Positions 20,599 to 46,316 of a stretch of DNA of 46,316 nucleotides are shown here, one piece after another. The notes under the pieces were generated by a model, which saw only the letters and a program-made list of their open reading frames with translations, was not told where the DNA came from and made no database searches. Every line of letters starts with the position of its first letter. Positions within the stretch are counted from its first letter, which is position 1. Origin of the DNA: an uncultured bacterium (GTDB lineage Bacteria; Patescibacteriota; Minisyncoccia; Phycocordibacterales; UBA918). The translations under genes and the position numbers were made by a program. The DNA is taken from the NCBI GenBank assembly GCA_913046815.1, contig CAJWTE010000001.1, positions 1 through 46,316 of the forward strand. Reading direction: 5' to 3'.

Positions 20599-21144
20599 AT
20601 GGCTAAGCAACAGGGAACCGGCGAGCGGCAGTGGTACGCCATTCATACTTATTCTGGTTATGAAAATGCGGTAGCTAGAAACTTGCGCCAAAGAATAGAT
20701 TCATTGGGCATGAACGACAAGATTTTTGATGTGGTGGTACCGACAGAAAAGAAAATACGAGTCAAAGGAGGGAAGAGGGTAACCGAAGAAGAGAAAGTGT
20801 ACCCGGGTTATGTATTGGTAGAAATGGTAGTGGATGATGAATCATGGTATGTGGTACGAAACACACCAAGAGTAACTGGTTTTGTTGGCAGTGGTACACA
20901 GCCAGTACCCCTAACTGAAGACGAATTGAACGCACTCATGAAGCGTATGAAAGATGACACTCCTAAGCATAAAGTAGATCTGTCTATTGATGATTTAGTA
21001 ACGATTGTGGACGGTCCTTTCAAAGAGTTAGAAGGCAAGGTAGGAGAGGTAGACGAAGAGCATGGTAAGGTAAAAGTTTTAGTGAGTATGTTTGGAAGGG
21101 AGACTCCCGTTGAGTTAGATTTCCTCCAGGTTAAAAAGGTATAA
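20599..21144 (+). CDS. nusG: Transcription termination/antitermination factor NusG
   Basis: WYAIHTYSGYENAV, VYPGYVLVEM, and a KOW motif (VTIVDGPFKELEGKV). Confidence 0.9.
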   Translation: MAKQQGTGERQWYAIHTYSGYENAVARNLRQRIDSLGMNDKIFDVVVPTEKKIRVKGGKRVTEEEKVYPGYVLVEMVVDDESWYVVRNTPRVTGFVGSGTQPVPLTEDELNALMKRMKDDTPKHKVDLSIDDLVTIVDGPFKELEGKVGEVDEEHGKVKVLVSMFGRETPVELDFLQVKKV

Positions 21145-21150
21145 ATCGGC

Positions 21151-21237
21151 GAAATCCTTGCGCTTCAAGGAAATTGTTCGTCACGGTATGTCCATATACC
21201 GCTCGCTCACAACTTCCTCTCCAGCACTACGGATTTC
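21151..21237 (+). repeat. Extended imperfect hairpin (family member D) after nusG
   Basis: Outer stem gaaatcc/ggatttc. Apical stem cggtat/ataccg flanked by tca...ctc. The 5' arm resembles the arm of element A at 45752-45868. Confidence 0.45.
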
Positions 21238-21475
21238 ATCCAATTTCTATCTTTTTAAAGTTCTGAAGAAAAACAAAAACCTTCCATTCGAATGGAAGTT
21301 TTAGGTTTAGACTCCTTGTATTTCATCTGATTTTGAAAGTTTAGTAATTGAAAAAATACAAACCTACGTCATCGGATGACCCGGGTTTGTTTTATTGTTG
21401 CCAAAATCGTGAATTTTATGTAGGATGGCGACGCTGTTACATTGCTTCTAAATAATGTAATTTCTCAAAAAGAAG

Positions 21476-21901
21476 ATGGCAAAAGAAATAATCAAACAAG
21501 TAAAAGTACAGGCTGAAGGAGGAAAGGCTACGCCAGCACCACCACTTGGTCCAGTACTAGGACAAGCCGGTATTAATATCGGTGAGTTTGTAAACCAATT
21601 CAACGAGCAGACTCGTGAACGTATGGGCGAAGTAGTGCCGGTAGTTATTACCGTGTACGACGATCGTTCGTTCGACTTTGTCTGCAAAACTACTCCAGCT
21701 TCAAGACTTATCTTGAAAGCAATTGGTCAGAAAAAGGGTTCTGGCAAGAATTTAGTATCTAAGTGTGGCGATATCACCAAGGCTCAGATAAAAGAAATCG
21801 CCGAAGCCAAGATGGTTGACTTAAATGCCAATGACATAGAACAAGCAATGAAAATCATTGAGGGTACTTGCAAAAGCATGGGTGTCCACGTGAAAGAGTA
21901 A
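21476..21901 (+). CDS. rplK: 50S ribosomal protein L11
   Basis: KVQAEGGKATPAPPLGPVLGQAGINIGEFVNQFN is the canonical L11 N-terminus. Confidence 0.9.
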   Translation: MAKEIIKQVKVQAEGGKATPAPPLGPVLGQAGINIGEFVNQFNEQTRERMGEVVPVVITVYDDRSFDFVCKTTPASRLILKAIGQKKGSGKNLVSKCGDITKAQIKEIAEAKMVDLNANDIEQAMKIIEGTCKSMGVHVKE

Positions 21902-21936
21902 GTCCAAAATAACCTCATCTGCTTTGTCAGACTACG

Positions 21937-21980
21937 AAAAAATCCCCTTACTGGGCACTTGCCCCACTCGGGGATTTTTT
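21937..21980 (+). terminator. Terminator-like hairpin (family member C) after rplK
   Basis: aaaaaatcccc / ttact-gggc-actt-gccc-cactc / ggggatttttt. Confidence 0.55.
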
Positions 21981-22134
21981 CTTGCCTTCCTCGCATCTAA
22001 AGTCATTTTAGAATTACTCCCATCTGACTATTTTCACAAACAAAAACCTTTCGGTTCACCGAAAGGTTTTTGTTTTGTGCATTTGTGGTACGTTGTAGCT
22101 AGATAAGTTCAAATTGTAACTGGAGGTGTCAACG

Positions 22135-22659
22135 ATGAATTTATTAGTTCGAGAAGATATTCTTAAATGCGCTCAGCGAGCTTTTAGAAGAGAACTAACG
22201 GGTGAAAATTTCTTTCTGCAAACTGGGGTTGCGGTTGCTTGGCAACCCCACGAGAATGGCGACCGTGTCCTATTTGTGCAGGGGATTAAAGGTGGCTGGT
22301 TTTGTCCAAAAGGAGGTTTTGAACCACAAGACAATAACTCGGCAGTAGCTACCGCTTTGCGTGAACTGGAAGAAGAGACCTGTCTATCAAATGGTTACGC
22401 AAAGCCAAAATACATTGGCTCTCGACGCAATCGTAAACACAATCCGGACAAGTATCCTCCTAATGAGGTAGGCAAACATTTGCATTTTGTGGAAGTTAGA
22501 TTCCACAAAAAGACAGATGTCTGTCCGCGCGTTGGTCATGGTGTGCACGACGTTATTTTTGTTGATAACAAAGTTGCTTTTAACAGGTTGTCTATGAGTG
22601 ATGCACGCCGTCGATCCGCTAACTTGGCATTGAAAACGGTTGGAATCAACTGGATCTGA
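22135..22659 (+). CDS. Nudix-fold protein with a partly degenerate Nudix box
   Basis: GGFEPQDNNSAVATALRELEEETCL. GGAGG lies 8 nt before the ATG at 22135. Confidence 0.55.
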   Translation: MNLLVREDILKCAQRAFRRELTGENFFLQTGVAVAWQPHENGDRVLFVQGIKGGWFCPKGGFEPQDNNSAVATALRELEEETCLSNGYAKPKYIGSRRNRKHNPDKYPPNEVGKHLHFVEVRFHKKTDVCPRVGHGVHDVIFVDNKVAFNRLSMSDARRRSANLALKTVGINWI

Positions 22660-45314: not shown

Positions 45315-45752
45315 ATGAATATAAACAAAGCCATGGTCTACGGAAATCTTACTAGAGATCCGGAGATGAAATCTTTACCAAGTGGTACACAGGTGTGTTC
45401 TTTCTCACTTGCTACCAACCGTGTCTATAACGACCGTGACGGCAATCGCCAAGAACAAGCTGACTATCACAATATAGTAGTTTTTGGCAAGCAAGCAGAA
45501 AATAGTGCCAAGTACCTGAATAAAGGTAGTAGTGCATACGTAGAAGGACGAATGCAGACTCGCTCTTGGGAAAAAGATGGTCAGAAACACTATCGTACAG
45601 AGGTGGTCGCTGATAGAGTCCAGTTTGGCCCTAAGAGTAGCGGGGGAGGAGCACCAGCTAATAATACTGGAGAAGACAAGTCAAAAGATGAAGCTCCAGC
45701 ACCTGTGGACTATCCGGAAGAGGAAATCAATCCCGAAGACATCCCATTCTAG
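45315..45752 (+). CDS. ssb: Single-stranded DNA-binding protein
   Basis: MNINKAMVYGNLTRDPE OB-fold and the C-terminal acidic tip ...EDIPF. Confidence 0.9.
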   Translation: MNINKAMVYGNLTRDPEMKSLPSGTQVCSFSLATNRVYNDRDGNRQEQADYHNIVVFGKQAENSAKYLNKGSSAYVEGRMQTRSWEKDGQKHYRTEVVADRVQFGPKSSGGGAPANNTGEDKSKDEAPAPVDYPEEEINPEDIPF

Positions 45753-45868
45753 CGCAGTAAATTACTCGCTGGCGGCGTTGCAGTTCAAAAAATTATTTTC
45801 ACTGGACTACCATGTCCCACTCAAATAATTTTTCTTCTGCGCCTTGTCAGCCAGCAATTTCCAAGCGC
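45752..45868 (+). repeat. Extended imperfect hairpin (family member A) after ssb; core hairpin at 45788-45833
   Basis: Core: aaaaattattt / tcact-ggac-taccat-gtcc-cactc / aaataattttt. Outer pairings: gcgc/gcgc, aaatt/aattt, gctggc/gccagc, gcag/ctgc. Confidence 0.55.
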
Positions 45869-45983
45869 TAGAACCTTGGGACATCCTGATACTTAAAAAT
45901 AAGAGCCAGAAATTTTTAGACGCCAGAACATTAGACAGTTCTGATACTTAAAAACAAATACTTGTAATTAAAACTTATTAACC

Positions 45984-46181
45984 ATGTCAGAAGAAAAAAC
46001 AACACAAACAATAAACCATATTGATTATAAAGACATCAATCGTATCAAAAATCATTTGAACCCACATTCACGTATGCATTCTCGCAAACGTACTCATATG
46101 AACGCGAAAGAACAACGACAGTTCGCGCGAGCTACTAAGAGGGCTAGGTTTATGGCTCTTGTGCCATACGTATCACACTAA
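45984..46181 (+). CDS. rpsR: 30S ribosomal protein S18
   Basis: IDYKDINRIKNHL...KEQRQFARATKRARFMALVPY. Confidence 0.85.
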   Translation: MSEEKTTQTINHIDYKDINRIKNHLNPHSRMHSRKRTHMNAKEQRQFARATKRARFMALVPYVSH

Positions 46182-46221
46182 AATCAACAAATATAACCAA
46201 TCTACTGCGTTGTCGTTCGGT

Positions 46222-46264
46222 AAAATAATACTCACTGGACTTTGTGTCCCATTCGTATTATTTT
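46222..46264 (+). terminator. Terminator-like hairpin (family member B) after rpsR
   Basis: aaaataatac / tcact-ggac-tttgt-gtcc-cattc / gtattatttt. Confidence 0.55.
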
Positions 46265-46316
46265 CCTCCGACGCTTTGTATCTTGGACATCTTGTTGATT
46301 TTAGAAATCAAAGCAA

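Follow-up and report, generated by a model that had tools for sequence, protein, structure and literature searches.

Hairpins behind housekeeping genes of a Patescibacteria genome as probable copies of a dispersed palindromic repeat of about 126 bp

The window analysed here is the whole of contig CAJWTE010000001.1 (46,316 nucleotides; GenBank assembly GCA_913046815.1), from an uncultured bacterium of the Patescibacteriota (GTDB lineage UBA918). It carries four related hairpins, designated copies A to D, which are the subject of this report. Gene calls and Pfam matches give the order secE, nusG, copy D, rplK, copy C and a NUDIX gene in one place, and ssb, copy A, rpsR and copy B in another, which bears out the position directly behind housekeeping genes that an original prediction, made from the DNA letters alone, had assigned to them. 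The genome under study (G000) amounts to 606 kb in 61 contigs with 42% G+C; its relatives carry the labels Paceibacterota, Paceibacteria or Kaiserbacteria, within the Patescibacteria or candidate phyla radiation (CPR). Since all of these genomes were binned from metagenomes, the copy counts are minimum figures, and related genomes are non-independent samples. Two covariance models were used, one built from four copies and a second from 43 copies. The copies analysed number 88, 43 of them out of about 30 genomes and 45 from genome G018.

The inner hairpins of the window were described correctly in most respects. Copy C reads aaaaaatcccc-TTACT-GGGC-actt-GCCC-CACTC-ggggatttttt at 21937-21980; in copies A and B, TCACT-GGAC...GTCC-CA(C/T)TC is enclosed by stems of different sequence that are again fully complementary. 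Both readings agree with the prediction. All four hairpins are real by folding against dinucleotide shuffles (z = -4.4 to -5.7; none of 200 shuffles as good), but folding with flanks shows each to be the inner portion of an imperfect hairpin of about 124-128 nt. The full hairpins and the stop codons within them are listed in Table 1. Similarly, the 5x5 internal loop that had been proposed is seen in copies A to C, but the apical bubble conserved across the family is 3x3, UCA / CUC. In the full folds, TTCTAGCGC pairs with GCGCTAGAA in copy A and CTAAAATCAACAA with TTGTTGATTTTAG in copy B, while in copy C the outer arm GAGTAAGTCCAAAAT pairs with ATTTTAGAATTACTC and the final three coding bases of rplK are also paired. 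Copy D had been called a longer relative of the others. Its position and architecture fit, with an apex of TCA-CGGTAT..ATACCG-CTC and a 5' arm that begins 11 nt upstream of the nusG stop codon, but its match to the 43-copy model is weak (9.6 bits) and limited to the inner hairpin at 21169-21218. We count it as a decayed member on the grounds of its position, length and apex type, and because the site behind nusG holds strong family copies in other genomes.

Table 1. Hairpin copies of the window, the stop codons in their 5' arms, and neighbouring terminator-type hairpins.
Feature	Positions	Strand	Basis
Copy D, full hairpin about 128 nt, degenerate member	21131..21258	+	folding
nusG stop codon TAA, within copy D 5' arm	21142..21144	+	open reading frame 20599-21144, Pfam NusG/KOW
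Terminator-like hairpin aaaaaccttccattcgaatggaagtttt, about 15 nt past copy D	21275..21303	.	terminator scan, both strands
Copy C, full hairpin 124 nt; core 21922-21995	21896..22019	+	four-copy model 85 bits, 43-copy model 78 bits, fold
rplK stop codon TAA, within copy C 5' arm	21899..21901	+	open reading frame 21476-21901, Pfam Ribosomal_L11; fold
Canonical A-tract/GC-stem/T-tract terminator past copy C	22040..22074	.	sequence
Copy A, full hairpin 128 nt; core 45773-45848	45747..45874	+	four-copy model 88.6 bits; fold
ssb stop codon TAG, within copy A 5' arm	45750..45752	+	open reading frame 45315-45752, Pfam SSB
Copy B, full hairpin 127 nt; core 46205-46280	46178..46304	+	four-copy model 92.1 bits; fold
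rpsR stop codon TAA, within copy B 5' arm	46179..46181	+	open reading frame 45984-46181, Pfam Ribosomal_S18

Architecture and covariation

The hairpin is built from the same parts throughout the family. At its base, the outermost stem of about 6-10 bp (in a complementary stretch of 6-15 bp) is different in every copy. Above it come a semi-conserved stem of an A-run against a T-run, and then short helices split by conserved bubbles, UC x UC followed by the pyrimidine-rich CUUCGUUG opposite CGCCUCGUA. The upper part is a variable stem of 10-12 bp, A-rich on its 5' side and U-rich on its 3' side, which leads through the UCA/CUC bubble to an apex of 4-6 bp of two types, GGAC/GUCC or CGUAC/GUACG. 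RNAalifold independently predicts the same architecture, outermost helix included. The conserved unit, with its fixed pyrimidine-rich bubbles, is about 105 nt long. The stem reaches a constant 25-26 nt past the model core on each side, and only 0-2 nt when 3' flanks are swapped between copies. Total length peaks at 124-126 nt and shows no dependence on the position of the stop codon (r = 0.03). Within a unit of about 126 nt, variability is greatest at the ends and conservation lies in the middle; in G018, near-identical cores occur at different loci with unrelated outer arms, each of them self-complementary.

Comparison of 43 copies shows 95.3% of cells paired, with double changes in 19 of 20 pairs. 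Not one of 500 shuffled-sequence controls reaches this level, and registers slid out of alignment are 43-51% paired. The hairpins are a genuine covarying family with conserved bubbles, as had been claimed. The original prediction went on to treat compensatory stems as the hallmark of a selected RNA, and the kinds of pairs involved do not sustain that step. Stems under selection as RNA normally tolerate G·U far more than A·C, yet among 856 cells we count 803 Watson-Crick pairs, 13 G·U and 19 A·C, with no sign of G·U standing far above A·C. The outermost variable positions are about 97% Watson-Crick, and A·C outnumbers G·U there by 10 to 1. Covariation that is confined to Watson-Crick pairs fits upkeep of a palindrome at the DNA level better than classic RNA selection. 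In addition, the antisense strand is the better folded in 43 of 43 copies, by a mean of 12 kcal/mol, because the conserved mismatches of the sense strand are C·A and pyrimidine·pyrimidine.

The same figures invite the suggestion that the antisense strand is the one that works, as an antisense RNA or a single-stranded DNA intermediate that folds nearly continuously, by way of G·U and G·A pairs, and is copied or acts in that form. The copy in a transfer-messenger RNA (tmRNA) gene, described below, is expressed in this polarity. Against this, no promoter or gene is known to make such a strand, and A·C is about as frequent as G·U in the inner variable stems. The bias moreover lies mostly at a few conserved positions and, since these are inherited by all copies, amounts to few independent events. 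We consider a working antisense strand very improbable.

The prediction of a selected cis-acting RNA module deserves more weight. The element would be a functional hairpin in 3' untranslated or intercistronic RNA, whose pyrimidine-rich bubbles might dock an RNA-binding protein or an RNase, stabilise mRNA, or couple the next cistron to termination at the stop codon, and it would have been recruited repeatedly to highly expressed genes. Bubble sequences conserved across genera amid variable stems are what such a module should display, and so are the fixed total length, an orientation nearly always that of the mRNA, a hairpin base at the stop codon, and the presence of copies behind the same housekeeping genes in different families of the order. 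The stems without G·U excess and the better fold of the antisense strand in every copy speak against it. So does the failure to match any Rfam family: with Rfam 15 at gathering thresholds the whole window gives only two tRNAs, and at permissive thresholds no match overlaps copies A to D, so that membership in a family known to Rfam is rejected. The distribution of copies, presented next, weakens the case further.

Position, spread and turnover

The family is anchored on stop codons. Of the 88 copies, 62 have a long open reading frame ending in an arm on the same strand only (that is, in the 5' arm), one has such a frame on the opposite strand only (the mirror position), eight have both, and 17 have neither, these last being mostly second copies of tandems. 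Stop codons fall into two registers: one is at the hairpin base, 25-29 nt ahead of the core, and the second is 15-17 nt ahead of it. In the second register, TAA overlaps the A-run of the element, and the outer 5' arm consists of the last nine or so coding bases. Of 69 copies, 53 have a stem that takes in the stop codon; in 40 the stem enters the coding sequence, and in 23 it does so by 6-15 nt. The codons used are TAA (48), TAG (20) and TGA (1), the genome-wide shares being 51%, 36% and 12%. Upstream genes are mostly highly expressed housekeeping genes (those for S18, SSB, L11, GyrB, SecY, NusG, S7, S9, S12, L10, L28, ATP synthase, GroEL, RpoD, GreA and others), and copies sit upstream of any terminator or next gene.

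Coding ends at these sites are native, for example ...DIPF in SSB, ...NLDI in GyrB and ...KKV in NusG, and therefore the 3' arm is the side that was made complementary to the gene. The outermost arms are complementary by Watson-Crick pairing, and the 3' arm is often an inverted copy of the last codons. In the copy on contig C47 it repeats the final 15 coding bases and TAG perfectly, in inverted form, over 18 nt, and at the site behind rpsG in four genomes it follows the identity of the stop codon, TAA or TAG.

Complementarity restricted to Watson-Crick pairs is equal for both strands. Together with the fixed length and the association with highly transcribed genes, it would suit a functional site in DNA, either an extruded hairpin or cruciform or the target of a dimeric DNA-binding protein, with a supposed role in replication, chromosome organisation or supercoiling. 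The bubbles are asymmetric, however, and the orientation follows the gene; a symmetric DNA site would need neither. The sporadic presence among orthologous sites (below) is a further difficulty, and we think a site of this kind improbable.

An intrinsic (factor-independent) terminator or attenuator, in which the inner hairpin of A-run, stem and T-run would bring RNA polymerase to a stop or a pause behind abundant genes, finds some encouragement in the alignment columns, where nearly all copies have AAAA 5' and TTTT(T/C)CTT 3' of the inner stem, and in the location of every copy after a stop codon. We reject it as hardly credible. An intrinsic terminator has an uninterrupted GC-rich stem and a U-tract at the end of the unit, but here the stem is broken by a 3x3 to 5x5 bubble, and a simple terminator scan skips the family hairpins of copies C and D. 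A separate terminator-type hairpin follows 15-50 nt past copies B (GC-rich), C and D (A-tract/stem/T-tract), and relatives without copy B have a plain terminator at that place. Essential operons hold many other copies between their genes (rpsL-rpsG, atpE-atpF, atpG-atpD and ssb-rpsR). On this point the original prediction, that these are no generic terminators, was right.

A strict search with the apex pattern finds only four occurrences in the 606-kb genome. The four-copy model marks ten places, six of them beyond its source copies, and the 43-copy model finds ten strong copies and a weak one, copy K. The total for G000 is ten clear copies, the weak copy K and the degenerate copy D. Outside the window, copies occur after rpsL, after rpsG (with copy K in tandem behind it), after atpE, after atpG and inside the tmRNA gene (copy E). 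Another precedes rplC, directly behind a short frame at the start of a contig that is probably the end of rpsJ. The copy on C47 (about 590-715), which follows a NUDIX-like gene, was missed by the four-copy model and scores 63 bits with the 43-copy model. Matches to the four-copy model occur in 33 of 36 genomes of the genus (1-49 each; 55 in G018). Among 149 genomes that belong to other genera of this order, 14 have matches, five of them with 7-15 copies. Copies in other genera show equal length and an equal relation to the stop codon. The scan that had been proposed as a check on the family thus returned six further copies in G000 and hundreds in relatives, and the family withstands the refutation that the original prediction had set for it. 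In the literature on Patescibacteria and CPR bacteria, we found no paper that links them with REP, MITE or hairpin repeats.

Orthologous sites show extensive turnover. The ssb-rpsR spacer holds a copy in four genomes (G000, G023, G022 and G021), all with different stems, and is a bare 27 nt in G064. A copy after rpsR occurs only in G000; four relatives have a plain GC-rich terminator straight after the stop codon, and G000 has kept a GC-rich terminator about 45 nt past copy B, as seen from an overlap with contig C21. Behind rplK, copies are present in G000 and in its closest relative G023 (L11 96% identical), with unrelated stems and with a nearly identical terminator beyond them. Of 22 sites that are occupied in G018 and have an orthologue in G000, only three are occupied in G000. 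Empty sites are short plain spacers, such as the 12 nt between atpD and atpC in G000, and because they lack palindromes we reject insertion into pre-existing hairpins. The filled and empty sites, with the turnover of stems, therefore indicate an element that is gained and lost rather than a conserved operator of particular operons.

The most unusual site is the tmRNA gene of G000 (contig C43, locus L002, 875-1397, minus strand), which is 523 nt long; nearly all of the 29 tmRNA genes recovered from relatives measure 380-399 nt, and two are longer. Copy E forms an insertion of 126-130 nt between pseudoknot 1 and the resume codon, antisense to the tmRNA, and the encoded tag peptide is ANKSVPSPYANAFGFAPAFA. 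In another member of the genus, a tmRNA of 488 nt (L253; G014:C16:2742-3229) has a different palindromic insert of about 94 nt, GGACTTGCGCGCTGAG...CTCAGCGCGTAAGTTC, near its 3' part.

A range of 0 to 55 copies among congeners, orthologous sites most of which are empty in one genome or another, minimal spacers that work without the element, and one copy lying antisense inside tmRNA are hard to reconcile with a selected RNA, and with the pair types already described they make the RNA module an unlikely explanation. In one genus of marine Paceibacteria-type Patescibacteria the element has come and gone at many sites, and it has done so patchily in further families of the order. We conclude that the hairpins are probably copies of a lineage-specific, non-coding, dispersed palindromic DNA repeat of about 126 bp, of the REP/BIME, ERIC or bacterial MITE kind. 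An additional RNA-level role of the element is possible.

Several further features were observed around the window copies. The nusG-rplK spacer (330 nt) contains, besides copy D and the terminator-like hairpin behind it, a second hairpin at 21360-21392 and a promoter-like site at 21398-21426. Because of the terminator-like hairpin and the promoter-like site, nusG and rplK may be separate transcription units here. The gene after rplK is the NUDIX gene (22126-22659), not rplA. In three other genomes (G021, G034 and G016; loci L043, L045 and L048) the site behind rplK holds a different repeat family, which begins past the stop codon with 10-12 nt that repeat the last rplK codons in inverted form, so that the stop codon is in or beside the loop of a perfect hairpin; at L048, the repeat unit is tandemly duplicated together with its copy of the rplK coding end. 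The stretch from copy A to rpsR contains ctgatacttaaaaa twice, as a direct repeat of 14 nt at 45886-45899 and 45941-45954, 55 nt apart, which could be promoter-like or a remnant of another repeat. The assembly is broken just past copy B, the end of contig C21 overlapping the end of the window (46282-46316). Joining the two gives rpsR, copy B, about 45 nt, a bidirectional GC-rich terminator and a convergent gene. The window ends only 12 nt past copy B, and several other copies are found within a few hundred bases of contig ends.

A proposed origin of the arms

For the dispersed repeat that we favour, the complementarity of the arms would be written and repaired at the DNA level, with one arm serving as the template for the other in fold-back or template-switch copying. 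Since coding sequence often makes up one of the arms, the only versions or events to survive would be those that leave the coding arm intact and rewrite the non-coding 3' arm. Gradual outward growth of a palindrome fits poorly with a constant total length that is independent of the stop position. Once transcribed, in mRNA or tmRNA, the element would fold on itself and loop out the insert, which would keep the stop codon beside the following start codon or terminator, or reunite the resume region of tmRNA. Such looping-out would explain how the element is tolerated in tight settings such as rpsL-rpsG, the atp operon and the tmRNA gene. A benefit to the host, for example a barrier to 3' exonucleases or REP-like segmental mRNA stability, is possible and would be secondary.

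A bolder and much more tentative proposal is that an undescribed process of hairpin-templated insertion spreads the unit of about 105 nt. A heavily transcribed gene would receive the unit at its 3' end, and the 3' arm of the unit would be completed, to a fixed length, by fold-back on the coding end of the target. The outcome would be an insert that stitches itself shut in RNA, with the stop codon beside the next start codon or terminator. If this is true, the same principle may lie behind other stop-codon hairpin repeats in these genomes. We regard it as doubtful.

Several points weigh against a dispersed repeat as the whole explanation. We found neither a transposase nor a parent element, and no target duplication or conserved motif in the flanks. 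That the antisense strand folds better is left unaccounted for, and the constant length is not explained by template switching alone. Recurrence after ssb, gyrB, atpE, rpsG, nusG and secY across genera could mean a selected function, and the fixed length and conserved bubbles could likewise reflect functional selection. Public contigs with matching L11 and S18 proteins show 100% identity to the window, Tara Oceans samples likewise have identical contigs, and these offer no empty/filled polymorphism within the population; two metagenome scans for empty alleles, at the tmRNA and rpsR sites, found none.

The fixed length, the site-specific outer arm taken from the coding end, and the covariation without wobble pairs are new as far as we know. 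The genomes of candidate phyla radiation bacteria are among the smallest and most streamlined known, yet a hairpin repeat within the most essential operons, and even in the tmRNA gene, takes up well over 1 kb of G000 and about 7 kb of a congener. If the neighbouring coding sequence is indeed what the outer arms are written from, the family offers a natural case, replicated many times, of template-directed hairpin creation, and 'covariation' that arises without RNA-level selection becomes a caveat for covariation-based discovery of RNA motifs. Should the hairpin instead serve the mRNA (in its stability, processing or coupling), an uncultured phylum would have in it a general device for gene expression. 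A practical consequence of these repeats is that they break assemblies.

Comparison with known repeat families

REP, BIME and REPIN elements are associated with RAYT (Y1/HUH) transposases (PMC3116915, PMC3337134, PMC3733652). Like them, the members of the present family are numerous extragenic palindromes, found behind genes and inside operons, for which roles in mRNA stability can be proposed, and G000 has a distant RAYT-like gene. REPs, however, are 20-40 bp long, have a conserved head such as GTAG (GTAG/CGTC) and flank their RAYT, whereas the present elements are about 126 nt long, and no strong copy adjoins a RAYT-like gene. A REPIN has conserved ends and a variable middle; here the arrangement is reversed. 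Neither a cognate gene flanked by the repeat nor a short palindrome with conserved head and ends was seen in the family. The RAYT-like Y1 transposase gene of G000 (C22:33-698) scores 45.7 bits with NF047646, below the cutoff of 80, and is flanked by its own perfect palindrome of 28-30 bp, AACTGTTGGACATC[C/G]GATGTCCAACAGTT. This palindrome occurs at six or more loci, including C4:1028, C9:12324, C19:6190, C22:711 and C33:4346, and therefore belongs to a separate system of the REP/RAYT type. At 19 other loci in the genus, each RAYT-like gene again has its own, different short flanking palindrome, and the four-copy model finds no strong copy beside the 20 RAYT-like genes. Such genes are present in five of five genomes of the order that have the family and in three of five that lack it. 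Within the genus, genomes with a RAYT-like gene tend to have more copies, a trend made weak by kinship. A REP mobilised by the genome's RAYT-like transposase is rejected, given the palindromes that these genes have of their own, the lack of strong adjoining copies, and the presence of the gene in family-free genomes.

Bacterial MITEs (Correia/NEMIS, RUP, BOX) are small non-autonomous repeats that form hairpins in mRNA and insert near genes, and the present family is likewise a small hairpin repeat near genes. MITEs are marked by terminal inverted repeats that are conserved among copies, by direct duplications of the target site and by kinship with a full-length insertion sequence. In this family the outermost 6-10 bp differ in every copy, and just outside the hairpin there are neither conserved bases nor direct repeats. 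No related autonomous insertion sequence was seen among the 88 copies and their flanks, the whole genomes of relatives not having been scanned for long elements.

Template switching creates and repairs perfect hairpin stems in a single step, and produces multi-base 'compensatory' changes (PMC8794818); such quasipalindrome mutations are treated further elsewhere (PMC7202029). It would explain multi-base changes that remain Watson-Crick-perfect and inverted copies of nearby sequence like those in the outer arms. It is a mutational process, however, and not an element, and it leaves the spread to new loci and the constant length unexplained.

The ERIC or IRU sequences of enterobacteria and vibrios are imperfect palindromes of about 127 bp in transcribed intergenic regions. 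The present family shares their habit, with a modal length of 124-126 nt, a long imperfect hairpin, a non-coding nature, location between operon genes or after genes, co-transcription and a variable presence and copy number; the resemblance is one of size and habit only. It differs in having ends that vary from copy to copy, no visible target duplication, a base at a stop codon, an outer arm complementary to the coding end, and a host among the Patescibacteria. ERIC/IRU has been cited among the stem-loop repeat families (PMC2267715). Judged by analogy of size and habit, it appears to be the closest known kind, joined on habit by REP/BIME and the hairpin MITEs.

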